The position numbers were made by a program, and so were the translations under genes. This document shows positions 37,881-61,184 of a stretch of DNA of 64,000 bases, one piece after another. The notes under the pieces are model-generated. The model was not told the origin of the DNA. It worked only from the letters and a program-made list of their open reading frames with translations, and did no database searches. Source of the DNA: Escherichia coli. GTDB lineage: Bacteria; Pseudomonadota; Gammaproteobacteria; Enterobacterales; Enterobacteriaceae. The stretch's first letter is position 1, and each line of letters starts with the position of its first letter. Location of the stretch: the NCBI RefSeq assembly GCF_003019035.1, contig NZ_CP027447.1; one strand, given 5' to 3'.

Positions 37881-38153
37881 AACTTCTACCTTTCTACCCT
37901 GTCGTTAACGAAGCAGGCGATGCCTGCTTTGAGGAAATTCTCACGCAGTATTGCCCGATTTTTGTTTAGTGTCTACTCATCTGACGGCATTTGCATCAGC
38001 AGTTTGCGTACCGTGCCGGAGCGTGCCATGTAACGCCTGTAACGAATTGATATTTCTCTGAACGCTGCTCGGTAAACACTAAAGAGGTGGCTGACGACGG
38101 CGCGCCTTGACTGGATACTGCCTTCACGCAAGACAACACGGAAGGCAGGGAAG

Positions 38154-39086
38154 ATGGATGCACCGAGTACCACACCGCATGATGCGGTATTTAAACAATT
38201 TTTAATGCATGCGGAAACGGCTCGCGACTTTCTGGATATTCATTTGCCAGCGGAGCTACGCGAACTGTGTGACCTCGACACGCTGCATCTTGAGTCGGGG
38301 AGTTTTATTGAGGAAAGCCTGAAAGGACACAGCACGGACGTACTCTATTCCGTGCAAATGCAGGGCAATCCCGGTTATTTGCATGTGGTGATTGAACATC
38401 AAAGCAAGCCGGATAAGAAAATGACCTTTCGCATGATGCGCTATGCCATTGCCGCCATGCACCGGCATCTGGAGGCGGATCACGATAAGCTGCCGCTGGT
38501 GGTGCCGATTCTGTTTTATCAGGGCGAGGCCACACCTTATCCGCTCTCAATGTGCTGGTTTGATATGTTTTACTCGCCGGAGCTGGCGCGACGCGTTTAC
38601 AACAACCCTTTCCCGCTGGTGGATATCACCATCACACCGGATGACGAAATCATGCAACATCGGCGGATTGCGATTCTCGAACTACTGCAAAAACATATTC
38701 GCCAGCGCGACTTAATGTTATTGCTGGAGCAACTGGTCACGCTGATTGACGAAGGGTACACTAGCGGAAGTCAGTTAGTTGCCATGCAAAACTATATGCT
38801 GCAACGCGGTCATACTGAACAAGCGGATTTGTTTTATGGTGTGCTGAGAGACAGGGAAACGGGAGGGGAGTCTATGATGACGCTGGCGCAGTGGTTTGAA
38901 GAGAGGGGAAGACAGGAGGAAAGGCAGGAGGTAAGACAGGAGGTAAGACAGGAGGTAATACAAGAGGTTAGACAGGAAGTAAGACAGGAATTCGCCCTGC
39001 GTTTTCTGAGTAAAGGGATGTCTCGGGAAGACGTTGCAGAGATGGCAAATTTACCTCTTGCTGAGGTTGATAAGCTGATTAGCTAA
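38154..39086 (+). CDS. rpnC: Recombination-promoting nuclease RpnC (YadD; PD-(D/E)XK, transposase_31 / YhgA-like family)
   Basis: 310-aa ORF; N-terminal nuclease region with candidate catalytic D62, E81, Q83 (TDVLYSV...VIEHQSK); C-terminal tail with (R/I)QEV repeats. Confidence 0.9.
   Translation: MDAPSTTPHDAVFKQFLMHAETARDFLDIHLPAELRELCDLDTLHLESGSFIEESLKGHSTDVLYSVQMQGNPGYLHVVIEHQSKPDKKMTFRMMRYAIAAMHRHLEADHDKLPLVVPILFYQGEATPYPLSMCWFDMFYSPELARRVYNNPFPLVDITITPDDEIMQHRRIAILELLQKHIRQRDLMLLLEQLVTLIDEGYTSGSQLVAMQNYMLQRGHTEQADLFYGVLRDRETGGESMMTLAQWFEERGRQEERQEVRQEVRQEVIQEVRQEVRQEFALRFLSKGMSREDVAEMANLPLAEVDKLIS
38874..39086 (+). CDS. Putative intragenic small protein (RpnS-like antitoxin) from internal in-frame start within rpnC
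   Basis: Strong internal SD gggaggggag 4-13 nt upstream of in-frame ATGATG at 38874; would yield a 70-aa protein equal to the RpnC C-terminal tail. Confidence 0.5.
   Translation: MMTLAQWFEERGRQEERQEVRQEVRQEVIQEVRQEVRQEFALRFLSKGMSREDVAEMANLPLAEVDKLIS
38910..38990 (+). repeat. 12-nt tandem codon repeat (AGACAGGAGGTA-like, about 7 units) in rpnC tail
   Basis: AGACAGGAGGAA AGGCAGGAGGTA AGACAGGAGGTA AGACAGGAGGTA ATACAAGAGGTT AGACAGGAAGTA AGACAGGAA read directly; encodes RQEE/RQEV repeats. Confidence 0.9.
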
Positions 39087-39154
39087 GTTATCTGCATTAT
39101 CAGTTATAGCCAGATAATTGTTATTGTTAACTGACCAGATAATCAAGGGAACAT

Positions 39155-39388
39155 ATGGAAATAAAGACACGGAGAGAAACCAGGCAGACGTTAGCGCAGT
39201 GGTTTGAAGAGAAGGGATTTCAGAAGGCGTATCAGGAGGCGTTTCAGAAGGGATATCAAGAGGAACTCCAGAAGGTAAGACAGGAATTCGCCCAGCGTTT
39301 TCTAAGTAAAGGGATGTCTCGGGAAGACGTTGCAGAGGTGACAACTTTACCTCTTACAGAGATTGATAAGCTAATTAACTCTAACTAA
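39155..39388 (+). CDS. Stand-alone Rpn C-terminal tail-domain paralog (77 aa), putative RpnS-like protein or tail cassette
   Basis: RBS aaggga 6 nt upstream of ATG; product MEIKTRRETRQTLAQWFEE...EFAQRFLSKGMSREDVAEVTTLPLTEIDKLINSN parallels the RpnC tail TLAQWFEE...EFALRFLSKGMSREDVAEMANLPLAEVDKLIS; about 90% nucleotide identity over 39275-39382 versus 38979-39086. Confidence 0.6.
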   Translation: MEIKTRRETRQTLAQWFEEKGFQKAYQEAFQKGYQEELQKVRQEFAQRFLSKGMSREDVAEVTTLPLTEIDKLINSN

Positions 39389-39483
39389 ATTGCCAGCGAT
39401 ATGAATAATCACTTACAGACGTCATCGCCATGACGTAGGGCAAATGAATAACTGGCGCCATTAGCCGTAGCGCCAGTTAAGTA

Positions 39484-40335
39484 TTACGCCAGCTCGACCA
39501 TTTTGTTGTCGATCAGGCGAGCATCGCCAAGCCAGGCGGCTACCAGAATCACCGCTCGTTTGCTGTTTTCAGAGATTTCCAGCAAGGTGTCGGCATCGCG
39601 AATCTGAATATCATCGGAACGGAAACCTTTTTCATTCAGTTCTTGCCCGGCAATAGCAATAATTTCATCGAGATCCCGTTCGCCAGCCTGCAATTTGTCG
39701 GCAATTGAACTTAAGACTTTGTAGAGACCCGGCGCAATTTTACGTTGTTCCGCCGTCAGATAGCCGTTACGGGAACTGAGCGCCAGACCGTCTTTCGCGC
39801 GCATAATCGGCACTCCGACAATCTCAATATCGAAGCCCATATCGGCAACCATTTTGCGGATCAGTGCCAGTTGCTGAAAATCCTTTTCACCGAAGCAGGC
39901 GATGTCCGGCTGGACCAGGTTGAACAGTTTGCTGACAATAGTCGAAACGCCGCGAAAATGTCCCGGACGGCTGGCACCTTCCAGCATGGTGGAAAGACCA
40001 GGAACATCAACATAGGTGTGGGTTTCAGTACCGTTCGGGTAGATCTCTTTTACCGAAGGCGCGAAAACTAAATCCACTTTACGTTTGTTCAGCTTTTCGC
40101 AGTCCTCTTGCAAGGTCCGTGGATAACGTGCCAGATCTTCCGGGCGGTCAAACTGCATTGGGTTAACGAAAATACTGACGACGACCACATCGGCGCGGGC
40201 TTTGGCTTCGTCGACCAGCTTCATATGGCCGTCGTGCAGGTTACCCATGGTGGGCACCAGCGCCACGCGCTTACCTTCCATACGCAGGCGGCGGATTTGC
40301 TGACGCAGCAGCGGCAGGGTTTCGATAATTAACAC
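39484..40335 (-). CDS. panC: Pantothenate synthetase
   Basis: 283-aa ORF; HIGH-like motif [10 protein letters not shown]. Confidence 0.96.
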
Positions 40336-40346
40336 AACGTCACTCC

Positions 40347-41141
40347 TTAATGGAAACTGTGTTCTTCGCCCGGGTAAACGCCGGACTCCACTTCAGCCAT
40401 ATACTGCCGCACAGCCGCGCGGATGTCGCCCGTTTCGGCGAGGAAATTTTTGGCGAATTTAGGAATATGACCGCCGGTAATGCCGAACGCGTCGTGCATC
40501 ACGAGGATTTGCCCGTCAGTGACGTTGCCTGCGCCAATACCGATAACCGGGATCGCCAGTGCTTCGGTAATGCGTTTTGCCAGCTCAACCGGCACGCACT
40601 CCAGTACCAGCAGTTGTGCCCCAGCAGCTTCTAATGCCAATGCATCGCTGAGCAGTCGATCGCCCGCTTCATCGCCGCGCCCCTGGACTTTGTAGCCACC
40701 GAAAATATTTACTGACTGTGGGGTTAGGCCTAAATGACCACAAACTGGAACGGCACGTTCGGTCAGCATTTGTACGGTTTCTACCAGCCACTCACCGCCT
40801 TCAATTTTGACCATGTTGGCTCCGGCACGCATTACCGTTGCGGCGTTTTCAAAGGCTTGTTCCGGCGTGGCATACGCCATAAATGGCAGGTCAGCCAGCA
40901 GAAGGCTGTTTGGCGCGCCGCGACGCACAGCGGCGGTGTGATAGGCGATATCGGCAACGGTAACCGGTAGCGTGGAGTCATGCCCCTGAACCGTCATCCC
41001 TAACGAATCGCCTACCAGCATGACGTTAAGTCCTTCTTCGGCAAACAGTTTCGCGAAGCTGTAGTCGTAAGCGGTGATGGTCGCGAAGCGTTTTTTTTCT
41101 TGCTTACATTTCTGAAGTGAAGCAATGGTGGTTGGTTTCAT
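40347..41141 (-). CDS. panB: 3-methyl-2-oxobutanoate hydroxymethyltransferase
   Basis: 264-aa ORF recognised as PanB; 11-bp gap to panC. Confidence 0.96.
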
Positions 41142-41253
41142 AACGAATCCTGATAAATGATGTTGTGCTGTCTCGCATTTTATCAGTCACATTGGTGGGG
41201 GCAATGATTTCTCTGTTGTGGCACCGCCATTACCAGACGGCACCACAATGTTA

Positions 41254-42525
41254 TCAGGGATAGGTAACCTGGAAAGTACTGGTGGCTTTAAATTCGCCGG
41301 GTTCAATAGCAATATTCCCGTCTTGTTTTAATGTAGCCTGGAAATGAAGTGGATACGTTATACCGTCATCTTCCGGGTAAATCGCATCTGAATCGTTATT
41401 CTGCGTCTGGCCCGTATTATCTTTATAAACAGAAGTTGAATCATTAGGTTTCAGTATCATGAGGGCACTTTTACTGTTTGCTAATCCTTCAATCAATACC
41501 CCAACGCCTTTTGCTGCGCCATTTCCTGTGAGAGTGTTACCAAGGAGTTGCCTGTTTTCAGTACCAACCTTTGTTGAAACTAATTTTGTCTCGATATTAG
41601 TCACACGAACGCAGTTTTGAAGTGAAATATCAAAAGGAACCGGTGTGGCACCGTTTCTTATTTGTGCTTCACTATACTCGCCCATTTTTACCGTAGAACC
41701 AGTAACAGATGTTCCACTTAACATAGCTGTAAAACAAGTGGGATTACTTAATTTAATATTTAGTAGGTCAAAATCAACTCGAAGAAAATAGCTGTGTTCG
41801 TTAATGCCGATACCAGCACCATAAGCTTTAAATGAATATAAATAGTTTGATGAGCGCGATAATGAAACTTGTTGAGTTACTGTTGGATCAAAGTTGGTAT
41901 CTGTATAAAATTCGATGGTAAGATTTTGATAAATACCGCCTACAGCCCAATATTTGCTGGATGTGTTGGCATTGTTACAACTTTGGTATAATATGCTTTC
42001 GCTTGGGTTGTACCATGAAAAATATTGTTCTGCAGAATCACCAATATATATTCCTGGTGAACTAACGTTAGTTACAGTACCGTAAGCTGACCACATATTT
42101 GAAATTAATATTGTATAATACAAACCGGGAACAGATGTATTGAATAGTTTATGGTTACCATATCTTTTTCCAGAGTCAACCATTGCATTTTCGATACGCA
42201 TTGCCCCGCCACTGGTGTTATTGCTTCTGTTACAATAAAGAAAGCCTCCGCCAGAAGCAGTATCTAACTGACTCCAATGTAATTTCACCCCTGTTGGACC
42301 CAGTTGTGTTGGTTTATAAAATACTAAATTATTTGTACTGGTACCATACCTGAACACGACTGTCACATCTCCATTTGGCCCGGTTTCTCTCCATTTTTGA
42401 TCTGACGGACCAACGCCGTAGTTATTCCCAACAACATATCCTACGAAATCATCAGTGCCAGCACTCGCGGTATAACAACTCAAGCACAGAATTAAAAAAA
42501 GAAAATATCTGAAGAATGTCTTCAT
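41254..42525 (-). CDS. yadC: Fimbrial tip adhesin-like protein YadC
   Basis: Start at [22 protein letters not shown] (signal peptide); last gene of the yad chaperone-usher operon; length differs slightly from what I recall for K-12. Confidence 0.85.
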
Positions 42526-42578
42526 TTTCACTCCACCATCCACTGCTGTAATAGTCGCAGTAATTTGTTTTTGGTATG

Positions 42579-43175
42579 TTACTCGTAGTAAATATCAATT
42601 AATACATGGCTTATGATTTGGCCGGGCATGACATTTAATACAGGGTTGATTTTTTGCATCCGTGTATAGAATTTCCAGGATGAATTGTTTAAATCAGCAG
42701 TCATCACCGGATAAATTGAACGAGAACTGCCCGCTGGGGTAAGAACATTAAATATATTAGCCGGGTCCTGAGTGGAAAATATTACTACACCTACGTTTTG
42801 AGCGCCGGCGACATTTTCATTTGCAAAAATTTGCTGAGAGCCTGTCGCCATCACGCCATTAAGCGGTTTAAAGTTAATATGTAACTGATTTAACACATTT
42901 CCAGAACCCTGGATGGCGCAGTCAGTCACAGTGATAGTGAACTCTCTCCCACCCGGATAATCATCTTCAGGTGCGACGTTACCAGAAAAATAATCCACAC
43001 CAACCACACCAAGGTCGATATTACCAAGGTTACTGAGGCCACTTTTACATGTACTGTTCTTGATATTGGCAACCATATCCACATCCAGCCCTGCATATAC
43101 AGGACTGGATGTGGCAAACAATAATGCCAGGAACAGACTTGTTTTTATCTTAATTTTTAGTTGAGAGGAAAGCAT
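42579..43175 (-). CDS. yadK: Fimbrial-like subunit YadK
   Basis: 198-aa ORF with signal peptide and fimbrial subunit C-terminal beta-strand. Confidence 0.88.
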
Positions 43176-43201
43176 AATCGGTCCCTGACTTTAATGGCCT
43201 G

Positions 43202-43807
43202 TTAGTTATAGGTGATAGAAAATGTTGCAGGTGCGGAAAACGGACCGGCAGTGATGTCGGTTTTGCTTTTATTTTTCTCTACCACCAGGCGTGCACTCAT
43301 AGGATGATATACTGACGTAGTTCCTGTTGCAGTGGAGATATTCACTTCCTGAGCGACTGGTGTTACGCAGCTAAATTGAGTCTTGCCGTCTGTACCAGGT
43401 GTCGTGGTATTCCATACTTCAACCGCAACAGCATTTGCTTTATCAGCAGCGGCGGAGCCGTTTGCAAAACCAGGCCCATCGTTGGCTGCTCCTTCACAAG
43501 TTGCGCGTTTAGTTAATTTTACGAGTGCTTTTTTATTAGGAATACCAGCACAATCCTTAAACTGTAACTTAAATATTTTAATTTTTGTTTTGGCATCAAT
43601 TTCAGGAATGTAAGCATCCCCAAATGCAATAACAGAAATAGGCTGATCATTGTCATCCACCAGGCTGGCGGTACAGGTTCCCGTCTCTACGGTTGCTTTA
43701 ACATTCAGCTTAACGCTATCGGTAGCTGCAAACAATTGGCTGGTGAATAGGGATGCCGCAAAAAAAACACCAGCGGGTAGTCCATAACATAATGTTTTAG
43801 ATTTCAT
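43202..43807 (-). CDS. yadL: Fimbrial-like subunit YadL
   Basis: Start at MKSKTLCYGLPAGVFFAASLFTSQLFA; 201 aa. Confidence 0.85.
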   Translation of the reverse strand: MKSKTLCYGLPAGVFFAASLFTSQLFAATDSVKLNVKATVETGTCTASLVDDNDQPISVIAFGDAYIPEIDAKTKIKIFKLQFKDCAGIPNKKALVKLTKRATCEGAANDGPGFANGSAAADKANAVAVEVWNTTTPGTDGKTQFSCVTPVAQEVNISTATGTTSVYHPMSARLVVEKNKSKTDITAGPFSAPATFSITYN

Positions 43808-43821
43808 TATTATCATCCCTG

Positions 43822-44388
43822 TTATTCATAAATGAAATTGAAAGTTGCCTGGGCGCGGAAATCGCCAGGAACACCACTGCCAGCCGTGGTTTCGCGCAGT
43901 GCAACGGTCAGTTCAAGAGTTTTGTCTGTATCACTAATTTCCCATGGAATAAAACTCGGCGCACTGTTTGGGATTAAGAATGTCGAATCATCTTCACCAA
44001 GTGCTTTTATACCCATACCAATATAATTAGTTGTTGATGTAGTGTCAGAAGAGAGTGGAACAATTAATGCGGGAGTAGTTCCGGAAGCATTCCCACTGAG
44101 CCTGGTATTGATTTTGCTGACGCCTGTGGTACAACCGCTGGCAACCAGATTAAAATTCGCCTGTGCTTGAGTCGTTTTATTTGCAATTTTGTCCAGACCA
44201 ATAGTTCCTGGGAAAGTTAATGTGTAGGTGTCACTCCCATCAGGGGTGACATTGTCGCCTGATAACGTAATGTTACAAGTTGATGCTTTTACGGTTGCTG
44301 TAAAATCAACATTAATGTCTGTTGCAAGTACAGAGGATGATAAAAATAATCCAGTCAGTATTGCCAATTTATGCAGTGTTATTCTCAT
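43822..44388 (-). CDS. yadM: Fimbrial-like subunit YadM
   Basis: Start at MRITLHKLAILTGLFLSSSVLA (signal peptide); upstream in-frame start at 44433 would overlap htrE. Confidence 0.82.
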   Translation of the reverse strand: MRITLHKLAILTGLFLSSSVLATDINVDFTATVKASTCNITLSGDNVTPDGSDTYTLTFPGTIGLDKIANKTTQAQANFNLVASGCTTGVSKINTRLSGNASGTTPALIVPLSSDTTSTTNYIGMGIKALGEDDSTFLIPNSAPSFIPWEISDTDKTLELTVALRETTAGSGVPGDFRAQATFNFIYE

Positions 44389-44407
44389 TATGTGAAATTC
44401 CCTGTTG

Positions 44408-47008
44408 TTACTGAATCTGACAACTAATTCCATTCAGAATAATAGTTTGCGCTATTTTTTCTGGTGCTGCGCTCTGCTGGTAATGAGCAAGGCAAGTGAC
44501 AGGTTTACCGTCGTCAAGCCAGTTGATACGTATGTTACCTTGTTGTTCTATACCTCGAACAAAGGCCTGACCACCTTGCCCTACATTGCCAATAATATTT
44601 CCGTTCTCGTCATAAATATCTGCGGCAAACGGAATGTTTTTACCGTCAGTTCGCTTGATGTTCATAATCGCTGATTGTCCCTGAACTGTTTCAAAACCAG
44701 CAAAGACAACAGACCCTTGGCGGGGGACAGTAATAGCACTGGTACTTTTCAATTCAACGTCATTTTCCAGACCGTTAATATCGAGTGCAATTCGGTTTTC
44801 ATGATAAGGGGAGAGCGCGTTAGTAACACCATATCCCCAACGATCTATCGTACTATTACCATAGTTAATACGCGCCCCTTTAGCTCCTGGCGCTTGTACA
44901 ACGGCCAGAGTGTCTGAGTCGCTAAAGCTGTCATTACTGAAGGTCAGGCCGCCGCTATGTAAAACAAATCCGCCGTCGGTATTAAATGAGATTTGACGGC
45001 TATTATCACTGCTTGCGGAAACTGAACTGGAAAGAGTTCCCCAGGGAGATTCATAGCTTGCATATCCGCCGATATAGCCCAAATCATCACTGGATTTCAT
45101 CATCGAATAGCCTGTATTGACGCTATAACTGATATGGTTTTCGGTGCTATAACCACTACTGCTGATACTGAGTTGATTGCTGCCGTTGAAATCACTATTT
45201 AACTGAGTATCAATGCTCTGAAAACCAGAGTCGCGATGTTCTGAACCCAGTAACTTTTCGATAGGAATGCTAAAGCTTAGATAGATGCTGTCTTCATTAC
45301 CGCCGTCCTGGCTCCAGGACCGTTGGGCACTAATGCTGTAGCTTCCCCACGATGCGCTGTTACTATAACCAATGGAGTAGTTAGTATTATTTTGTCCGTC
45401 CGCCCAATAGTCAGACCAACTTCCGGCAAGATAGAATGAGCCATAGTCTTTCTTTTCAAACTTGAGGGGTTGGTTAATACTAACCGTAACCTGATTTTTC
45501 ATGCGTGAATAGTTACGCATATTTTTAGGTTCCAGGTCCTGTTCCGGATGTTTTACTTCATCGATCAATGTCAGTGCATCGTTAAGCCCCAGATAATTCT
45601 GGGTTGAATAACGGTAAGCGGCGATATTGAGCGAGGTTCTTGTATCTTCAAATAACTTATTCCAGGAGATGCGATAGCTTTGCCCGCGGTAGGTTTTATC
45701 GTCCGGAATTTGCACATCCGAGTGGGTTACATCGACTGAAAACGCACCGTACGCGGTATTCAGGCCAAGGCCCAACAGCCCGGCAGTATAGTTATTATCG
45801 GTAATTTGAATACCGGTATAACCTGTAAGATAGTTGTTCAGACCATAGTAGTAGCTGGCCTGGAACAAATTTGGCTCATTTTGAATATCGTCTTTTAATA
45901 CCTGACCAGCACTGATGTCCCATCTTCCAACACCAGGGCGTTGCATCTGAATTACCGAAGAAAATGGCTGGGAAAAAGTTCGTTTTGTGCCATCAGATTC
46001 TTCGATAGTGATAATGAGATCGCTGCCGTAGCCTGATGGGCTTAAATCATCAATAACAAATGCTCCCGGCGGCACGGTAGTTTCATAGATTTTATAACCA
46101 CCCTGGGTAATGGTGACTTTTGCGTTGGTGTTAGCGACACCATGAATAATAGGCGCAAAACTAGCTAACGCAGGCGGTAGCATTCGGCTGTCGCTGTATA
46201 AACGAATACCGCGAATACTGACAGCATCAAAGGTTTCCCCAGTTGTGTATGACTCACCCACTATTAACTGTGAACGCAAAGAGGCCAGGTCGCGCTGCAA
46301 ATAGCGATTCTGAAAATCGTAATCACTGCCTACATTGGTCATCCAGTTGTAGTTGCCGGTTGCGCGAAGCCGCCATGCCCCCAGATTTATACCGCCGTTA
46401 AATGCCGCATAAACACTGTCGTTTTTTCTGTCTGGAATTTCGCTGTGATATGCGTTCACATTGTAGGCCAGCATTGCGGCGTTAATACCGTTTTCCCACA
46501 ATGACGGATCAACATAGTTTTGGTAATTCTTCATTATCCAGGCTTGAGGAACGTTGATATCCAGCCGTTGATCGTTGACGTCATAATGAACTGAAGCCTG
46601 GGGAATGATATTCGCCAAATCTAGACAATCTCCGAGTTCGCCTTCGCGCTGTAGAAGGATGGAATTCTCGGCATTTATATCTGGTCTATTAATGTGAAAC
46701 TGCAATAAATTCTTCAGGGTGATACAAGCCTGCGCATTCTTCTTACCTTCGAGGGTAATAAAGGAAATGCTTTGGTTGATAACCGGTTGATCATTGATAT
46801 AAACACTGACGTCATACACGCCGGGCAAGGTAGGGTTACCTTCGGTATACCGACTAAGGTCGATGTTAGAAGCATCTTGCCCCATCAAAAAGGTATTATC
46901 ATATTCAACGTGTTCAGCGCTTATGGCACAGGGGCTTAATAGCAATGCGCAAAACGAGGCTATATATGTAAGTTTGTTATTATGCGTTTTTATGATTTTT
47001 CTGGACAC
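44408..47008 (-). CDS. htrE: Outer membrane fimbrial usher HtrE
   Basis: 866-aa ORF, usher family; N-terminus differs from the K-12 sequence as I remember it, suggesting an allelic variant. Confidence 0.9.
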   Translation of the reverse strand: MSRKIIKTHNNKLTYIASFCALLLSPCAISAEHVEYDNTFLMGQDASNIDLSRYTEGNPTLPGVYDVSVYINDQPVINQSISFITLEGKKNAQACITLKNLLQFHINRPDINAENSILLQREGELGDCLDLANIIPQASVHYDVNDQRLDINVPQAWIMKNYQNYVDPSLWENGINAAMLAYNVNAYHSEIPDRKNDSVYAAFNGGINLGAWRLRATGNYNWMTNVGSDYDFQNRYLQRDLASLRSQLIVGESYTTGETFDAVSIRGIRLYSDSRMLPPALASFAPIIHGVANTNAKVTITQGGYKIYETTVPPGAFVIDDLSPSGYGSDLIITIEESDGTKRTFSQPFSSVIQMQRPGVGRWDISAGQVLKDDIQNEPNLFQASYYYGLNNYLTGYTGIQITDNNYTAGLLGLGLNTAYGAFSVDVTHSDVQIPDDKTYRGQSYRISWNKLFEDTRTSLNIAAYRYSTQNYLGLNDALTLIDEVKHPEQDLEPKNMRNYSRMKNQVTVSINQPLKFEKKDYGSFYLAGSWSDYWADGQNNTNYSIGYSNSASWGSYSISAQRSWSQDGGNEDSIYLSFSIPIEKLLGSEHRDSGFQSIDTQLNSDFNGSNQLSISSSGYSTENHISYSVNTGYSMMKSSDDLGYIGGYASYESPWGTLSSSVSASSDNSRQISFNTDGGFVLHSGGLTFSNDSFSDSDTLAVVQAPGAKGARINYGNSTIDRWGYGVTNALSPYHENRIALDINGLENDVELKSTSAITVPRQGSVVFAGFETVQGQSAIMNIKRTDGKNIPFAADIYDENGNIIGNVGQGGQAFVRGIEQQGNIRINWLDDGKPVTCLAHYQQSAAPEKIAQTIILNGISCQIQ

Positions 47009-47042
47009 GTTGTGCTTCCTGCTGCGTTTATTCCTGATTTAG

Positions 47043-47783
47043 TTACAGGCTGGCATTGCCTTCAATTGCACCACCAAAGTCATTTATGGCGAAGAAATGC
47101 ACTTTGGCAGAACTTGCTTTACCACTCATGCCTTTTATGTAGAAGGTTTCTTCACTCAGCGGGGCTACCATTTTTACATCCAGGGGGTAGGTTTTGCCAT
47201 TGGCGACTAAATCACCACTACTGAATGAGACGTGATACGGTGTCGGATTTGCGACGCGCAATGCAGTTTTTCCAGCAGAGGTTGCCCATGACCATTTCAG
47301 TGCTGCGGGTGCATCTGATGGCAGTCCGTTTAAACCTTCCGGGCGATAAAATAATTTGATACGCGTACGGAATGCCAATTGCAGAAGACTCTGGTTGGCG
47401 ACTTTATCTGCGTCAGGTTTGGGTGGAACCTCGAGTACGTTAAACCAGAAAACACTTTCTCGGTCTTTTGGCAGCGGTGAGGAAGCCGTGTACATCAATT
47501 TAATAGTTTGACCACGTTTGGCATCAATTCGCGAAACAGGAGGGGTGGCGGTAAATGGGACAGTAATACTCCCTGGTTCAGCACTATCGTCGCCAGTATC
47601 CAGCCAGCTCTGAACGAGTAACGGATTATTCCCCTTATTTTCCAGCCGAACATTAACGCTTTTTTCATTACTTTTATAAATTACGCGAGTTCCTGAAATT
47701 ACGATATCTGCTATTGCCGATGCGCTTAAGCTCATACAAGTGGCGAAGCATACAGCTGCAGTATGTTTAGCGTTTAAAAACAT
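47043..47783 (-). CDS. yadV: Periplasmic fimbrial chaperone YadV (EcpD)
   Basis: 246-aa ORF, PapD-like chaperone with signal peptide. Confidence 0.92.
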   Translation of the reverse strand: MFLNAKHTAAVCFATCMSLSASAIADIVISGTRVIYKSNEKSVNVRLENKGNNPLLVQSWLDTGDDSAEPGSITVPFTATPPVSRIDAKRGQTIKLMYTASSPLPKDRESVFWFNVLEVPPKPDADKVANQSLLQLAFRTRIKLFYRPEGLNGLPSDAPAALKWSWATSAGKTALRVANPTPYHVSFSSGDLVANGKTYPLDVKMVAPLSEETFYIKGMSGKASSAKVHFFAINDFGGAIEGNASL

Positions 47784-47880
47784 AAACCATTCCCGACAGA
47801 GTTAATTAAAATAGGGAGTAACATTCCACTATTAAGAAAGTTACTCCCATAGATATTCAGTTTATGAATCTAACGAAGGA

Positions 47881-48465
47881 TTACTGGTAAGTAATGGTAT
47901 ATGCAGTGTTGGTTTTAACATAACCAGCAGTTGGTGCCTGGCTTGCTTCAGCACGGACATAGGATGCTTTAAAATCATAGGTTGCAGATTTAGTCGTAGC
48001 GTCCAGCGTTTTTGTGTAAATATCGCCTGGGTTGTTAATTTGAACCTGTTTGATAGTGGAACCATCAATATTGTGCAGGGCAATATTTACGCCGTCAGAA
48101 GGCGTGTTAATAGACATATCGTTGTTCAGAGTCCCTTTGCTGTTGCCAAAGAACACGGAACCGAAGGTCATTTTTGCGGTGCTACCAGGATTCGGGTTTG
48201 CATTGCTGCAGTCAACGGTGATGCTGAAAGGTTTAGCTTTAGCACCTACGGTGTCATTCAGTACGCCAGCACTGATTTCAGCAACAGTTGCAGTTTGCAG
48301 AAGCACCAGGCCATCTTTGTTGCCACCATCAACACGGGTTTCACAGGTGTTATCAACTACCAGACCACTGATATTTAATTGGCCACCGTCCAGTGCAGCA
48401 GAAGCATTACCAGCAACCATTGCTAACATCAAGCTGGACAGCGCAAAACCTAATTTTTTAGACAT
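47881..48465 (-). CDS. yadN: Major fimbrial subunit YadN
   Basis: Start at [23 protein letters not shown]; first gene of yad operon, followed upstream by about 300 bp of AT-rich DNA. Confidence 0.88.
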
Positions 48466-48772
48466 AATAATCCTTGAATAATATTCCATGAGTTTAACTT
48501 TAATCAGCCCCCCTCAAGCAGGAAGTCCCGAGAAAGAAAAGGTGAATGGTTTGTTAATGATGGATGTTTGGATTTACCGAATGTAACATCTGTTCATCAT
48601 TAGGGGAGTATTGTGCACATTTAATATTAAATATCCACTTAATTCAATTTTAAGTAAAACTAAATATATAATGTGACGATAATGGTGTATATGGGCGGGG
48701 CTGCCAAGTGGGGTAAAATATTATATGTTTATGATTATATTCTGGGGCGAATTAATTGCAATTGTGGGAAGG

Positions 48773-49291
48773 CTATTTTCGGAATTTATTTATATTTGCA
48801 ACACTATTGTATTGCCATTTATTTAATTCATCGAATTTATTTATTCGTAAAAAGTTGTCTAATACTGTCCCATCAGGAAACACTAACTTCGGCGCAATTT
48901 CAAACAGTGGCCACAGCATAAAGCCACGATTTTTCATATCGTAGTGCGGAACGGTCAGACGTTCGGTATTTATTACTTCATTACCAAACAGCATGATGTC
49001 GAGATCCAGCGTGCGCGGTCCCCAGCGTTCAGCTTTACGGACGCGACCTTGCTGCAATTCGATACGTTGTGTGTGATTGAGTAGCTCTTCAGGGGCAAGA
49101 GTGGTTTCCAGCGCGACGGCGGCATTTAAGTAATCGGGTTGATCTTGCGGCCCCAGCGGTGGGGTGCGGTAAAACGAAGAAACAGCAAGAATGCGGCTTT
49201 CTGGAATATCGCCTAATGCTTTCAGGGCAGCATTGACCTGCTCCAGCGGAGAGGCCAGATTGCTGCCTATGGCAATATACGCCACTGTCAT
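48773..49291 (-). CDS. folK: 2-amino-4-hydroxy-6-hydroxymethyldihydropteridine pyrophosphokinase
   Basis: 172-aa ORF starting [12 protein letters not shown]; start overlaps pcnB stop (ATGA); 3' end extends into AT-rich DNA. Confidence 0.92.
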
Positions 49292-50685
49292 GCGGTACCC
49301 TCACGACGCGGTGCGCGTTTGCGTGGACGACGAGTACGACGACGCGGTGACGGTTCTTCATCCAGTTCGTTAAGCATCCCTTTTTGGTCTGGCGGCGCGG
49401 AAACCTGGAACTCACCCCACCATTTCACCAGACGTTGCAGTTCAGCGTTACGCTCAACTTCGGCTCGTAAGGCCAACAGGTCGTATGCCGCACGGAACTT
49501 AGGATGCTCCAGCAGTTTCCATGCGCGTTTTCCCTGACGACGGGACATACGCAACTGCAACTGCCAGATATCGCGAGTTAGCGTAGTCAGACGTTTCGGG
49601 ATCGCCAGTGAACGGCAGGCTTCGTCCAGCACGTCGTTCATCGCCAGTGCGAAAGCGTCGTGATAGGTCAGGCCGCTCTCCTGAGCAATTTTCTGTGCCG
49701 TCTCCAGCAGTGGATACCAGAACATGGCGGCAAACAGGAACGCCGGGTTCACGCGCATATCGTTATGGATACGCGTATCGGTATTCTTCAGCACCTGTTC
49801 AATGATCCGCTCCATCGGGCTGTCGCCATTTTCCGTGAAGTAGCGGGTAATGGTCGGGAACAGCGGCTGGAACAGATGATATTCACACAGCAGCTTATAA
49901 GTTTCGTAACCGTAGCCCGCTTGCAACAGTTTCAGCGATTCTTCAAACAGACGTGCCGGTGGGATATCGTTCAGTAAGGTTGCCAGGCGTGGGATCGGCT
50001 CGGCGGTTTCCGGGCTGATGCGCATGCCCAATTTGGCGGCAAAACGAACCGCGCGAAGCATCCGTACCGGATCTTCACGGTAGCGCGTTTCCGGGTTACC
50101 AATCAGACGGATAACGCCGTCTTTCAGATCCTTCATGCCGCCAACGTAATCACGGACGGTAAAATCTGCCACGCTGTAATACAGGCTGTTGATAGTGAAA
50201 TCGCGGCGCTGGGCGTCTTCTTCGATGGAGCCGAAAATGTTGTCGCGCAGCAACATACCGTTTTGCCCGCGTTGGGAGGTCGTGCGGTCGCTGACGTTAC
50301 CTTCGTGATGTCCACGGAAGGTCGCAACTTCGATAATCTCCGGGCCAAACATCACATGAGCCAGACGGAAACGGCGACCCACCAGGCGGCAGTTACGGAA
50401 CAGTTTGCGCACCTGCTCTGGCGTGGCGTTGGTGGTCACGTCAAAATCTTTCGGCTTTTTGCCAAGTAACAGGTCGCGCACGCCGCCGCCAACCAGCCAG
50501 GCTTCGTATCCCGCTTTATTGAGCCTGTACATTACCTTCAGGGCATTTTCACTGATATCTTTGCGGGAAATAGCATGCTGCTCACGCGGGATCACCGTCA
50601 CCTGTGGACGGGCGACTGCCTGTTCAGCCTCGCTTTCCTCGCGGCTTAGCACCTTGCGGCAAAAATTAGCGACTCGGGTAAAAAT
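49288..50685 (-). CDS. pcnB: Poly(A) polymerase I
   Basis: Start assigned to the AUU codon encoding the I of ...[10 protein letters not shown] (established non-canonical start), 465 aa; ORF-track frame extends 7 codons further upstream. Confidence 0.9.
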
Positions 50686-50744
50686 AGTACACCTCGGTAG
50701 TGTCAAACATCATTCAGGACAAAAAAATAGCGGCTAATCATAGC

Positions 50745-51641
50745 TCAGCATGACGCATTTGAGAATGTTGAATTTACAATTGCCGACTCAGGCACGGCAG
50801 TCAGCGTCCAGTTTTTGACGGCTGACTGAAGGATTTGCTCGACGCTGAAATCCTGCCAGTGTGTTTCTACCTGCTGACCCAGAAAATGAAGTGCCGCGAT
50901 TAACACCGGGCGCGGATCGCCTTTCGGCAACGCAGGCGCATGATTCTGCTTGGAAAGTTTAGCGCCTTGTGTGTTAAGCGCCAGCGGTAAATGAATGTAA
51001 TCTGGCACTTTCCAGCCAAAAAGCTGGTACAGCGAGATTTGTCGCACTGTCGGTTCAATCAAATCTGCCCCACGAACAATTTCTGTGACGTCCTGGAAGT
51101 GATCATCGACCACCACCGCCAGGTTATAGGCAAACAAACCATCACGACGATGAATAATAAAATCTTCTTGCGCCAGTTTTTCGTCGGCGTGAATAATTCC
51201 GCGTAGTTGATCAGTAAACTGCGTGACCGGATGCAACTGCCGAATTCGCACAGCCGCGTTGTCTGGTCCATGATGCAAATCCCGGCAATGACCGTCGTAA
51301 ATACCGCCAATGCTTTGAATACGCGCACGCGTGCAGGTGCAGTAATAACTTAGTCCTTGCTCATATAACCAGGCGAGTGCTTCGCGATAGGCGTGGTGAC
51401 GTTGCGATTGCCAGAGAACGTCGCCGTCCCAGTGCAGGCCGTAATGTTCCAGCTGGCGCAGGATAGTCTCTGCGGCACCGGGAACTTCACGAGGCGGGTC
51501 GATATCTTCTATGCGTACCAGCCAGCGACCTTGCCGGGCGCGAGCCTGTAAATAGCTGCCAAGCGCGGCAATCAGAGAGCCAAAATGAAGCTCGCCGGAA
51601 GGAGAGGGGGCGAAGCGACCAATATAGTGTGTGTCTGTCAT
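50745..51641 (-). CDS. gluQ: Glutamyl-Q tRNA(Asp) synthetase
   Basis: Start placed at [22 protein letters not shown] (298 aa) because the dksA terminator hairpin lies just upstream; a 308-aa form starting at 51671 is the alternative. Confidence 0.85.
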
Positions 51642-51650
51642 CTCTTTGAA

Positions 51651-51680
51651 CAAAAAATAAGGCGGGAGCATTTCCCGCCT
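51651..51680 (-). terminator. Intrinsic terminator downstream of dksA, upstream of gluQ
   Basis: On minus strand: ggcgggaaatgctcccgcc hairpin followed by TTATTTTTTG. Confidence 0.8.
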
Positions 51681-51707
51681 GTGGTAAACGTGATGGAACG
51701 GCTGTAA

Positions 51708-52163
51708 TTAGCCAGCCATCTGTTTTTCGCGAATTTCAGCCAGCGTTTTGCAGTCGATGCACAGATCGGCTGTCGGGCGCGCTTCCAGACGGCGAATACC
51801 AATTTCAACACCGCAGGATTCGCAGTAGCCGAAATCTTCGTCTTCCACTTTTTTCAGCGTCTTCTCGATCTTTTTGATCAGCTTACGCTCGCGATCGCGG
51901 TTACGCAGTTCGAGGCTGAACTCTTCTTCCTGGGCTGCACGGTCTACCGGGTCCGGGAAGTTGGCTGCTTCATCCTGCATATGTGTAACGGTGCGATCGA
52001 CTTCATCCCTGAGTTGATTACGCCATGCTTCCAGAATACGACGGAAGTGCGCCAGCTGGGCTTCGTTCATATACTCTTCGCCCGGCTTCTCCTGATATGG
52101 CTCCACCCCAGCGATGGCGAGAATACTCAGGGACGATGTTTTACGGTTTTGCCCTTCTTGCAT
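51708..52163 (-). CDS. dksA: RNA polymerase-binding transcription factor DksA
   Basis: Start at [15 protein letters not shown]; 151 aa; C4 zinc finger [25 protein letters not shown]. Confidence 0.96.
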
Positions 52164-58940: not shown

Positions 58941-61184
58941 ATGGCGCGTTCCAAAACTGCTCAGCCAAAACACTCACTGCGTAAAATCGCAGTTGTAGTA
59001 GCCACAGCGGTTAGCGGCATGTCTGTTTATGCACAGGCAGCGGTTGAACCGAAAGAAGACACTATCACCGTTACCGCTGCACCTGCGCCGCAAGAAAGCG
59101 CATGGGGGCCAGCTGCAACTATTGCGGCGCGACAGTCCGCTACCGGCACCAAAACAGATACACCGATTCAAAAAGTGCCACAGTCTATTTCTGTTGTGAC
59201 CGCCGAAGAGATGGCGCTGCATCAGCCGAAGTCAGTAAAAGAGGCGCTTAGCTACACGCCGGGTGTCTCTGTTGGTACGCGTGGCGCATCCAACACCTAT
59301 GACCACCTGATCATTCGCGGCTTTGCAGCAGAAGGCCAAAGTCAGAATAACTATCTGAATGGCCTAAAGTTGCAGGGCAACTTCTATAACGATGCGGTCA
59401 TCGACCCGTATATGCTGGAACGTGCTGAAATCATGCGTGGTCCGGTATCCGTGCTGTACGGGAAAAGCAGCCCTGGCGGCCTGTTGAACATGGTCAGCAA
59501 GCGCCCGACTACAGAACCGCTGAAAGAAATTCAGTTTAAAGCCGGTACTGACAGCCTGTTCCAGACTGGTTTTGACTTTAGCGATGCGCTGGATGATGAC
59601 GGCGTTTATTCTTATCGCCTGACCGGTCTTGCGCGTTCTGCCAATGCCCAGCAGAAAGGGTCAGAAGAGCAGCGTTATGCTATTGCACCGGCGTTCACCT
59701 GGCGTCCGGATGATAAAACCAATTTCACCTTCCTTTCTTACTTCCAGAACGAGCCGGAAACTGGTTATTACGGCTGGTTGCCGAAAGAGGGAACCGTTGA
59801 GCCGCTGCCGAACGGTAAGCGTCTGCCGACAGACTTTAACGAAGGGGCGAAGAACAACACCTATTCTCGTAACGAGAAGATGGTCGGCTACAGCTTCGAT
59901 CACGAATTTAACGATACCTTTACTGTGCGTCAGAACCTGCGCTTTGCTGAAAACAAAACCTCGCAAAACAGCGTTTATGGTTACGGCGTCTGCTCCGATC
60001 CGGCGAATGCTTACAGCAAACAGTGTGCGGCATTAGCGCCAGCGGATAAAGGCCATTATCTGGCACGTAAATACGTCGTTGATGATGAGAAGCTGCAAAA
60101 CTTCTCCGTTGATACCCAGTTGCAGAGCAAGTTTGCCACTGGCGATATCGACCACACTCTGCTGACCGGTGTCGACTTTATGCGTATGCGTAATGACATC
60201 AACGCCTGGTTTGGTTACGACGACTCTGTGCCACTGCTCGATCTGTACAATCCGGTGAATACCGATTTCGACTTCAATGCGAAAGACCCGGATAACTCCG
60301 GTCCGTACCGCATTCTGAATAAGCAGAAGCAAACGGGCGTTTATGTTCAGGATCAGGCGCAGTGGGATAAAGTGCTGGTCACCCTGGGCGGTCGTTACGA
60401 CTGGGCAGATCAAGAATCTCTTAACCGCGTAGCGGGAACGACCGATAAACGTGATGACAAACAGTTTACCTGGCGTGGTGGTGTTAACTACCTGTTTGAT
60501 AATGGTGTAACACCATACTTCAGCTATAGCGAATCGTTTGAACCTTCTTCGCAAGTTGGGAAGGATGGTAATATTTTCGCACCGTCTAAAGGTAAGCAGT
60601 ATGAAGTCGGCGTGAAATATGTACCGGAAGATCGTCCAATTGTAGTTACTGGTGCCGTGTATAATCTCACTAAAACCAACAACCTGATGGCGGACCCTGA
60701 GGGTTCCTTCTTCTCGGTTGAAGGTGGCGAGATCCGCGCTCGTGGCGTAGAAATTGAAGCGAAAGCGGCGCTGTCGGCGAGTGTTAACGTAGTCGGTTCT
60801 TATACTTACACCGATGCGGAATACACTACCGATACTACCTACAAAGGAAATACGCCTGCACAGGTGCCAAAACACATGGCTTCGCTGTGGGCTGACTATA
60901 CCTTCTTTGACGGTCCGCTTTCAGGTCTGACGCTGGGCACCGGTGGTCGTTATACTGGCTCCAGCTATGGTGATCCGGCTAACTCCTTTAAAGTGGGAAG
61001 TTATACGGTCGTGGATGCGTTAGTGCGTTATGATCTGGCGCGAGTCGGCATGGCGGGCTCCAACGTGGCGCTGCATGTTAACAACCTGTTCGATCGTGAA
61101 TACGTCGCCAGCTGCTTTAACACTTATGGCTGTTTCTGGGGCGCAGAACGTCAGGTCGTTGCAACCGCAACCTTCCGTTTCTAA
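58941..61184 (+). CDS. fhuA: Ferrichrome outer membrane transporter FhuA (TonB-dependent)
   Basis: 747-aa ORF; signal peptide, TonB box EDTITVTA, C-terminal ...ATFRF. Confidence 0.97.
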   Translation: MARSKTAQPKHSLRKIAVVVATAVSGMSVYAQAAVEPKEDTITVTAAPAPQESAWGPAATIAARQSATGTKTDTPIQKVPQSISVVTAEEMALHQPKSVKEALSYTPGVSVGTRGASNTYDHLIIRGFAAEGQSQNNYLNGLKLQGNFYNDAVIDPYMLERAEIMRGPVSVLYGKSSPGGLLNMVSKRPTTEPLKEIQFKAGTDSLFQTGFDFSDALDDDGVYSYRLTGLARSANAQQKGSEEQRYAIAPAFTWRPDDKTNFTFLSYFQNEPETGYYGWLPKEGTVEPLPNGKRLPTDFNEGAKNNTYSRNEKMVGYSFDHEFNDTFTVRQNLRFAENKTSQNSVYGYGVCSDPANAYSKQCAALAPADKGHYLARKYVVDDEKLQNFSVDTQLQSKFATGDIDHTLLTGVDFMRMRNDINAWFGYDDSVPLLDLYNPVNTDFDFNAKDPDNSGPYRILNKQKQTGVYVQDQAQWDKVLVTLGGRYDWADQESLNRVAGTTDKRDDKQFTWRGGVNYLFDNGVTPYFSYSESFEPSSQVGKDGNIFAPSKGKQYEVGVKYVPEDRPIVVTGAVYNLTKTNNLMADPEGSFFSVEGGEIRARGVEIEAKAALSASVNVVGSYTYTDAEYTTDTTYKGNTPAQVPKHMASLWADYTFFDGPLSGLTLGTGGRYTGSSYGDPANSFKVGSYTVVDALVRYDLARVGMAGSNVALHVNNLFDREYVASCFNTYGCFWGAERQVVATATFRF

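Follow-up and report, generated by a model that had tools for sequence, protein, structure and literature searches.

An intact Yad chaperone-usher operon of a rare and very old sequence version at the panB-folK site of Escherichia coli

In the 64,000-nucleotide (nt) stretch of Escherichia coli DNA analyzed here (contig NZ_CP027447.1, hereafter the window), seven complete open reading frames (ORFs), all on the minus strand, span positions 41254-48489 between panB and folK. They contain yadN-yadV-htrE-yadM-yadL-yadK-yadC (41254-48465), all seven intact, and both this gene order and the panB-folK site identify the region as the already known chaperone-usher operon of the Yad adhesive fimbria, of which the window has an uncommon and very ancient form. 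A first-pass annotation made from the sequence had placed the same genes, from yadN to yadC, on the minus strand between these flanks, and the ORFs and Pfam matches agree with it. Every component that defines a chaperone-usher operon was found, namely a two-domain PapD-like chaperone, a three-domain usher, pilins and a two-domain tip adhesin. YadV matched PapD_N (150.6 bits) and PapD_C (67.1 bits), both above their gathering scores, and HtrE matched PapC_N (148.9 bits), Usher, comprising pore and plug (519.2 bits), and PapC_C (67.3 bits). The Fimbrial family (PF00419) was detected above its gathering score in YadN, YadM, YadL and the C-terminal part of YadC, and scored below it in YadK (22.2 vs 25.6 bits), which passed the NCBIfam model NF011794. 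Altogether, five of the seven proteins (HtrE, YadV, YadC, YadL and YadK) passed NCBIfam equivalog models (Table 1). The htrE gene probably starts at the GTG at 47008, with AGGAAG ahead of it; RefSeq instead places the gene at 44408-46996 (862 amino acids). An Rfam scan of positions 38000-52000 returned zero families at gathering score.

The AlphaFold2 model of YadC (predicted local distance difference test, 84.9; predicted template modelling score, 0.73) had FimH, CupB6, PapG, FocH and CfaE as its top Foldseek matches, and the protein is accordingly modelled as a two-domain adhesin fold. The comparison of YadC with the PDB by sequence yielded marginal PapK matches to the pilin domain only, and no solved-structure relative of the lectin domain was detectable in it.

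Table 1. Positions and assignments of the features of the panB-folK region discussed in the text
Feature	Position	Strand	Assignment
panB (flank)	40347..41141	-	Pfam PanB
Conserved 13-bp stem-loop	41216..41248	-	6 nt past the yadC stop; no U-tract
yadC	41254..42525	-	Tip adhesin, 423 amino acids; NCBIfam NF007267 'fimbrial-like adhesin' 888.7 bits (cutoff 391)
yadC parts	residues ~23-255 and ~256-423		Signal peptide, then lectin domain (~23-255) and pilin domain (~256-423); Pfam Fimbrial in the C-terminal part only
yadK	42579..43175	-	Minor fimbrial subunit, 198 amino acids; NF011794 297 bits (cutoff 132)
yadL	43202..43807	-	Minor fimbrial subunit, 201 amino acids; NF011797 'YadL' 371.7 bits (cutoff 206)
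yadM	43822..44391	-	Minor fimbrial subunit, 189 amino acids; Pfam Fimbrial 69.2 bits; top NCBIfam model StaD, below cutoff
htrE	44408..47008	-	Outer-membrane usher, 866 amino acids (probable start); NF007337 1644 bits (cutoff 830)
yadV (ecpD)	47043..47783	-	PapD-like periplasmic chaperone, 246 amino acids; NF007398 444 bits (cutoff 285)
yadN	47881..48465	-	Major fimbrial subunit, 194 amino acids; Pfam Fimbrial match
yadN upstream region	48466..48772	-	Coincides exactly with the yadN-folK intergenic region; 307 bp, GC content 34.2%; presumed to hold the promoter and to be bound by H-NS
Rare recombinant patch	48494..48870	-	~380 bp; covers the final ~18 codons of folK and most of the yadN upstream region
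folK (flank)	48773..49291	-	Pfam HPPK (FolK), residues 5-134 intact

The operon had been described as more AT-rich than its flanks, and the checks of windowed guanine-cytosine (GC) content, of GC content at third codon positions (GC3) and of codon adaptation all bear this out. Its GC content is 42.8%, vs 52.5% in the remaining window, and none of the 415 other 7.5-kb segments falls below 0.494. The GC3 of the yad genes ranges from 0.30 to 0.44, vs 0.57-0.62 in panC, panB and pcnB, and all seven lie below each of the 40 other ORFs of at least 150 amino acids (Mann-Whitney U = 0, p = 1.5e-5). The codon adaptation index, referenced to the aceE, aceF and lpdA genes of the window itself, has a median of 0.317 in the operon vs 0.410 outside (p = 0.013). 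The maximum within the operon belongs to yadN (0.544), the GC3 of which is similarly low, and the other six genes range from 0.25 to 0.34; this codon adaptation of yadN is consistent with high expression once the operon is switched on. Low GC content was common to all the E. coli yad lineages described below, with 42-47% in the operon and 26-34% upstream of it. The sole other strongly AT-rich spot of the window, at 13000-13600 (GC 0.31-0.37), corresponds to the aroP-pdhR intergenic region of strain IAI39 at 99.8% identity.

The alignment to K-12 MG1655 revealed that the flanks are 93-100% identical, vs 60-80% in the operon, and that identity in 200-nt bins falls sharply to 50-80% from ~40950 to ~48940. 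Amino-acid identity to K-12 is 92% for YadN, 84% for HtrE, 82% for YadV, 70% for YadL, 68% for YadK, 65% for YadC and 64% for YadM, vs 98% and 100% for the flanking PanB and PcnB. The N-terminus of HtrE (VSRKIIKTHNNKLTYIASFCALLLSPCAISA in the window vs VTIEYTKNYHHLTRIATFCALLYCNTAFSA in K-12) and the length of YadC (423 amino acids vs 416 in the RefSeq K-12 annotation) differ from K-12, as the first-pass annotation had remarked. The annotation had spoken of 'variant alleles', which holds as to the difference and fails as to the small scale that it implied, the whole operon being a separate deep lineage in which htrE shares 78% nucleotide identity with K-12. Overall, the yad genes are 65-86% identical per gene, in nucleotides, to the alleles of K-12, EC958 and CFT073. 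Composition and codon usage like those of the flanks, or alleles identical to K-12, had been named as the observations that would speak against the annotation, and neither was found.

The synonymous sites of htrE are saturated relative to K-12 (proportion of synonymous differences, pS, 0.747; nonsynonymous divergence, dN, 0.089; ratio of nonsynonymous to synonymous divergence, dN/dS, 0.02). As a yardstick, panB, panC, pcnB and folK of the window were compared with Salmonella, giving pS values of 0.60-0.62. Because the htrE value exceeds this flank divergence between E. coli and Salmonella, the split between the window and K-12 operons is far older than the E. coli phylogroups. The dN/dS values of the yad genes, 0.02-0.17 vs K-12 and 0.04-0.26 vs the sister sub-lineage CP53, indicate that these genes have been under purifying selection throughout since that split.

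The place of the window copy in the species was assessed by a sensitive search for htrE in 5,426 complete E. coli genomes. It was found at 99% identity or more in 85 genomes, at 95-99% in 75 and at 90-95% in 44, no genome fell between 80 and 90%, and 5,019 lay at 60-80%. The window copy is therefore one of a discrete minority lineage, present in 204 of the 5,426 genomes (3.8%; htrE at least 90% identical) and separated from the rest by an absence of intermediates. Among representative loci at least five lineages were recognized, all at panB-folK and in the same orientation, for which the numbers I-V were coined in the present analysis. Lineage I comprises K-12, 7_14_50A, AVS0713 and G749; lineage II, CFT073 and JCM5491; and lineage III, the window and AR_0077, with CP53 as a sub-lineage at 91% nucleotide identity. 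HtrE is 84-88% identical in amino acids among these three. Lineage IV is represented by ETEC4070, with six genes (HtrE 73-75% identical to I-III), and lineage V by O157 Sakai and EC28 (HtrE 60% identical to I-III). AVS0713 and G749 stood in for the EC958/ST131 type in these comparisons. Under the usher criterion of PMC13245861 (at least 80% identity over at least 80% of the length of EC958 HtrE), the window usher would be scored as Yad, with 84% identity over the full length to both AVS0713 and K-12.

The existence of Yad variation is not new, because wide variation had already been reported, with minor subunits at 60-100% identity, YadC at 45-100% and two subtypes within phylogroup B2 (PMC13245861). 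In O157:H7 Sakai (locus L014, 24329-31293) and EC28 (locus L016), the phylogroup E usher is 60% identical to those of K-12, EC958 and CFT073; an usher below the 80% threshold may explain why phylogroup E was scored Yad-negative in PMC13245861 although the site is occupied. A panB-folK site without the operon was observed in E. coli HS-01 (locus L019, 6001-6638), where a 638-nt gap of 68% GC holds ~100 nt of panB-side and 73 nt of folK-side intergenic DNA around ~460 nt unmatched in the compared yad loci. The window matches E. coli SCU-301 (NZ_CP051751), to which a 7.6-kb query was 100% identical, the genes being annotated there as fimbrial; in the 19.6 kb compared, a single base differs, at 45641. 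SCU-301 belongs to phylogroup F, sequence type (ST) 967 (PMC11251922). The flanks of the window are 96-99% identical to phylogroup A, B2, E and F references, which by itself is ambiguous for phylogroup; the published typing of SCU-301 settled the assignment.

The boundaries of the divergent segment indicate how such alleles may travel. At the 5′ end of panB, identity to K-12 is 0.865 over 40942-41141, down from ~0.95, and further on it is ~0.7, so that the left edge lies in the panB 5′ end and its promoter region (41142-~41205). The panB-proximal intergenic part is conserved in all lineages, and both panB and folK display raised synonymous divergence. On the other side, the usual TAA stop of folK reads CAA in the window, and FolK has 172 amino acids instead of 159 (+13 residues, 48773-48811). 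This 172-residue FolK is a real allele, because the exact protein occurs on 130 contigs of public assemblies. In each of the yad lineages compared, FolK ends in a different set of ~18 residues, and E. albertii, in the same 90% FolK cluster, has yet another tail; because of this pattern, the tail of this essential enzyme would travel with the fimbrial cassette. Since the edges of divergence lie inside the panB 5′ end and the last ~18 folK codons, homologous replacement is indicated rather than site-specific insertion, and what moves would be the allele, by homologous recombination in the flanks.

Moreover, the locus is mosaic. The window yadC is identical to that of AR_0077, and its product shares only 59% of amino acids with CP53 YadC, of the same lineage; the nearest other yadC allele (85% identity in nucleotides) belongs to an operon with a lineage-I backbone. 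On these comparisons, yadC is uncoupled from the usher backbone. Within YadC, the lectin domain is 58% identical to K-12 and to the EC958 type, vs 87% for the pilin domain to the EC958 type, which suggests exchange within the gene. A rare recombinant patch (Table 1) was delimited upstream of yadN: other type-III genomes (59 listed of the 157 at 99% or more) match the window only up to 48493, and the 521-nt query 48440-48960, which holds the patch, was matched at 99% or more in a single complete genome of the 5,426, that of SCU-301, followed over the full length by the upstream region of the EC958 type (~80%). The changed folK stop lies within this patch. Even between members of lineage III, identity to AR_0077 drops to 97.2% at 46001-47000, vs 99.8-100% in the neighboring 1-kb bins, so that one more short tract of recombination may be present toward the 5′ end of htrE. 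Elsewhere in the window there is a second hypervariable stretch, where two 1-kb bins at 59000-61000 are 81-92% identical to CFT073, vs 96-99% in most others; by synteny with CFT073 and Sakai, they were placed in fhuA, encoding a ferrichrome and phage receptor.

Downstream of yadC, the stem-loop at 41216-41248 had a fold z-score of -2.7. Eight haplotypes covering all five lineages were compared: paired cells amount to 96.6%, and compensatory changes occur in 7 of the 11 pairs; neither the percentage of paired cells nor the covariation score was matched in any of 500 shuffles, and sliding the partners collapses the pairing. The G-U pairs favor the yad-sense strand, and in the Salmonella locus a hairpin likewise stands directly after the adhesin gene. 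This element is probably the 3′-end or terminator hairpin of the yad transcript. Because it has no U-tract, it may be a 3′-end stabilizer or an atypical terminator, and no hit of the terminator-pattern scan coincided with it.

At the other end of the operon, the ~300 bp of very AT-rich DNA that had been noticed ahead of yadN measures 307 bp, and its GC content (34.2%) lies below the first percentile (41.4%) of 307-nt segments elsewhere. Several blocks in this region are conserved across very divergent haplotypes, including TTTTACTTAA..TTGAATTAAGT (~48637-48658), TGCACAATA (48609-48617) and CCTAATGA (48597-48604). A further block, AATATAAATA..TTC.GAAAA (48776-48796, minus strand), is invariant in seven haplotypes amid highly divergent DNA; it lies immediately beyond the point where folK usually stops, which puts it within the lengthened folK frame of the window, and could be a promoter element or regulator site. 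The fold of the 5′ untranslated region (48466-48560) was no better than that of shuffled sequence (z = +0.42).

Regulation by H-NS has been documented for other alleles. The yadN gene of K-12 is bound by H-NS in three chromatin immunoprecipitation data sets, and SlyA overproduction raises its expression 2.4-fold (PMC5797941). The first-pass annotation had called the operon cryptic in K-12 in the laboratory, and the part of PMC5797941 that cites Korea et al. backs this, describing K-12 yad as poorly expressed under laboratory conditions. In CFT073 and EC958, H-NS repression of yad was demonstrated by reporter, quantitative reverse-transcription PCR, Western blot and enzyme-linked immunosorbent assay, and serum induction was also reported (PMC13245861). 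As to the window allele, a scan for the H-NS motif TCGATAAATT with up to two mismatches gave 75 matches vs 58.9 expected window-wide, with a modest enrichment in the operon, and is uninformative as a scan. From its AT-richness, the window allele is likely to be silenced by H-NS as well, and confidence stops at that level because the sequence ahead of its yadN represents a distinct allele, poorer in AT than any other in the comparison.

A mechanism can be proposed for the operon, with the assembly steps derived from the established chaperone-usher model. Transcription would proceed from the AT-rich region upstream of yadN, probably under H-NS silencing that is lifted by an antagonist, for instance SlyA, or by a host cue, for instance serum, and would end at the conserved stem-loop past yadC. 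The seven products, the N-terminal signal peptides of which were judged by reading the translations and not by a prediction tool, would be exported by Sec. In the periplasm, YadV would cap each subunit by donor-strand complementation, and HtrE would polymerize them at the outer membrane through donor-strand exchange, starting with the adhesin YadC, continuing with the tip or adaptor subunits YadK, YadL and YadM and finishing with the YadN shaft. On the evolutionary scale, at least five ancient lineages at panB-folK would be swapped as cassettes via homologous recombination in the housekeeping flanks. Independent reshuffling within a cassette would affect the promoter region as well as the adhesin and the lectin domain that it contains.

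The whole explanation, that of an intact, H-NS-regulated Yad operon of an ancient lineage exchanged as a cassette, is given a probability of roughly 0.88. Several observations weigh against it. YadN and YadM passed no NCBIfam equivalog model, their best matches being StaA (132.9 bits, cutoff 230) and StaD (112 bits, cutoff 228), respectively, and the published experiments on Yad concern lineages other than III. The GC content upstream of yadN in the window is the highest among nine yad upstream alleles, the others ranging from 25.6 to 31.6%, and because this region is a rare, highest-GC allele, its regulation may differ from that of the tested ones. Likewise, the promoter was not placed by the sigma-70 consensus scan, in which hits were not in excess over chance (22 vs 20.1 expected), although 5 of the 22 cluster at 48663-48861 on the minus strand. 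The published YadC ligands, D-xylose and annexin A2, are not transferable, because the window lectin domain is 58-74% identical to characterized YadC. Finally, no donor species was found in the HtrE scan of one genome per species, with two peptide patterns and three loci, a weak negative, and for this reason ancient polymorphism and import from elsewhere are not told apart.

The latter is the strongest of the competing explanations, and states that lineage III was imported fairly recently from another Escherichia or enterobacterial species via flank recombination, rather than kept since before the species arose. Saturated synonymous sites between ordinary E. coli flanks would be expected from such an event, as would the raised divergence of the adjacent panB and folK around a recombination tract, and the FolK tail, varying by lineage and different again in E. 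albertii, points the same way. However, all named proteins more than 73% identical to the window HtrE are labelled E. coli, followed by Leminorella (63%) and Salmonella (61%), and the one-genome-per-species scan, with its two peptide patterns, matched only the E. coli representative (85%), a short contig of a metagenome-assembled genome (88%) and a 243-nt contig of a Pseudomonas assembly. A recent import is rather unlikely, although it deserves more credit than the other alternatives.

The cassette reading can also be extended to a long-lived polymorphism in which at least five lineages, probably older than the species, are kept at panB-folK by balancing or frequency-dependent selection, their modules are reshuffled and the recombinant patch weakens H-NS silencing, a doubtful proposal at present. 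If it were true, hosts, immunity or phage would be the selecting agents, the adhesin, the lectin domain, the promoter and the last FolK helix would be the modules, and the unique, less AT-rich promoter patch in an ST967-type strain would lead to different expression of a normally cryptic fimbria.

It is very improbable that the operon is a relic without function, cryptic and decaying into pseudogenes. Disrupted copies do exist: in IAI39, yadC is interrupted by an IS3, yadM is frameshifted and htrE has acquired a stop, 7_14_50A has a stop in yadC and ETEC4070 a frameshifted minor subunit. The poor laboratory expression of Yad described by Korea et al., in the part of PMC5797941 citing them, would suit decay. 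Nevertheless, all seven ORFs of the window are full length, the dN/dS values given above are low both vs K-12 and vs the sister sub-lineage, yadN codon adaptation stays high and the 3′ hairpin is kept by compensatory changes; moreover, yad deletion attenuates extraintestinal pathogenic E. coli in mice, shown with an allele other than that of the window (PMC13245861).

The least credible explanation, a recent AT-rich genomic island put between panB and folK by a mobile element, agrees with the low GC and GC3 relative to the flanks, with the patchy distribution of the lineage (204 of 5,426 genomes) and with the flagging of K-12 yadN in a predicted genomic island ('GIST') (PMC5797941), but it is contradicted by divergence boundaries inside panB and folK and by a same-orientation chaperone-usher operon, mostly of seven genes and of six in lineage IV, at this site in all five lineages and Salmonella. 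Nor were the marks of a mobile island found: the tRNA scan returned none, the ORF list and Pfam contain no integrase or transposase gene in 41142-48772, and the search for flanking direct or inverted repeats gave only short matches of the chance type. The site was occupied anciently, because Salmonella enterica and every E. coli lineage examined carry a chaperone-usher operon there, and the earlier description of the operon as 'inserted' holds only in this ancient sense; as a recent insertion, it fails on the missing mobility signatures and on the Salmonella operon. An RpnC-like gene ~2 kb from the segment (38154-39086) is present in all strains compared; its product (PF04754, 310 amino acids) has a tandem repeat of the QEVR type at the C-terminus and, depending on the strain, is annotated with 290 to 318 amino acids. 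The gene is followed, within 38154-39400, by a ~300-nt insertion/deletion relative to K-12 (0% aligned at 39142-39341), which presents a strong GC skew and holds a 234-nt ORF that the SCU-301 annotation lists as a hypothetical protein.

With the cassette of an ancient lineage as the preferred explanation, the advance over previous knowledge is incremental: the operon was already known, and its deep lineage status, the confirmation of the site shared with Salmonella, its mosaicism and the covarying 3′ hairpin are added here. Otherwise, this is an ordinary annotated operon that was recognized correctly from the outset. Yad has been tied to bloodstream and urinary-tract virulence, with YadC, which binds annexin A2 (PMC6921372), proposed as a drug target (PMC13245861, PMC6921372). 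Results from K-12, CFT073 and EC958 are not safely assumed for lineage III, carried by ~4% of complete E. coli genomes, the minor subunits and lectin domain of which share no more than 58-75% identity with the alleles studied so far, and gene-presence surveys based on identity thresholds will mislabel the more distant Yad lineages.

Compared with known systems, the window operon is closest to the Yad operons of K-12 MG1655 and EC958 (lineage I) and CFT073 (lineage II), with which it shares the site, the seven genes, their order and orientation, the AT-rich upstream region, near-identical gene lengths and a GC content of 42-43%, and from which it differs by 65-86% nucleotide identity per gene and by other alleles of the upstream region and FolK tail. 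The Sta operon of Salmonella enterica has the same seven-gene layout between folK and panB, with an upstream region of 29% GC; in the locus compared (L017, 7509-14620), it encodes a major subunit, a chaperone, an usher, three minor subunits and a ~404-residue adhesin, and the secondary NCBIfam matches of YadN, YadM and YadL are StaA, StaD and StaE, respectively. Yad had been described as core-associated and equivalent to Sta, and their location at the same site had been stated as data not shown (PMC3559732). The Salmonella contig with an operon between folK and panB therefore confirms the statement of a shared site. Unlike the window operon, the Salmonella one has a coding GC content of 52.5%, equal to that of its own flanks, with an usher 61% and an adhesin 29% identical in amino acids. 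Only upstream are both AT-rich. A low coding GC content is therefore not a shared ancestral trait of the locus, or else Salmonella has lost it.

Type 1 fimbriae (FimA, FimC, FimD, FimF, FimG and FimH) share their assembly pathway with Yad and likewise carry a two-domain adhesin at the tip. Among the structural matches of the YadC model, FimH ranks first, but with only 11-12% sequence identity and low whole-chain template modelling scores of 0.24-0.28, and the YadC lectin domain is larger (~230 amino acids). The repeat search found no inverted repeats suitable for an invertible promoter switch such as that of type 1 fimbriae. A broader parallel is provided by polymorphic loci for surface antigens, such as fliC and the O-antigen rfb cluster, which are swapped as cassettes while their flanks stay conserved. 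Unlike them, Yad has no known serological or selective agent, and any mechanism of its maintenance is presumed; like them, it displays deep discrete allelic classes at a fixed site, diverged adjacent housekeeping genes and the greatest variability in its exposed parts.

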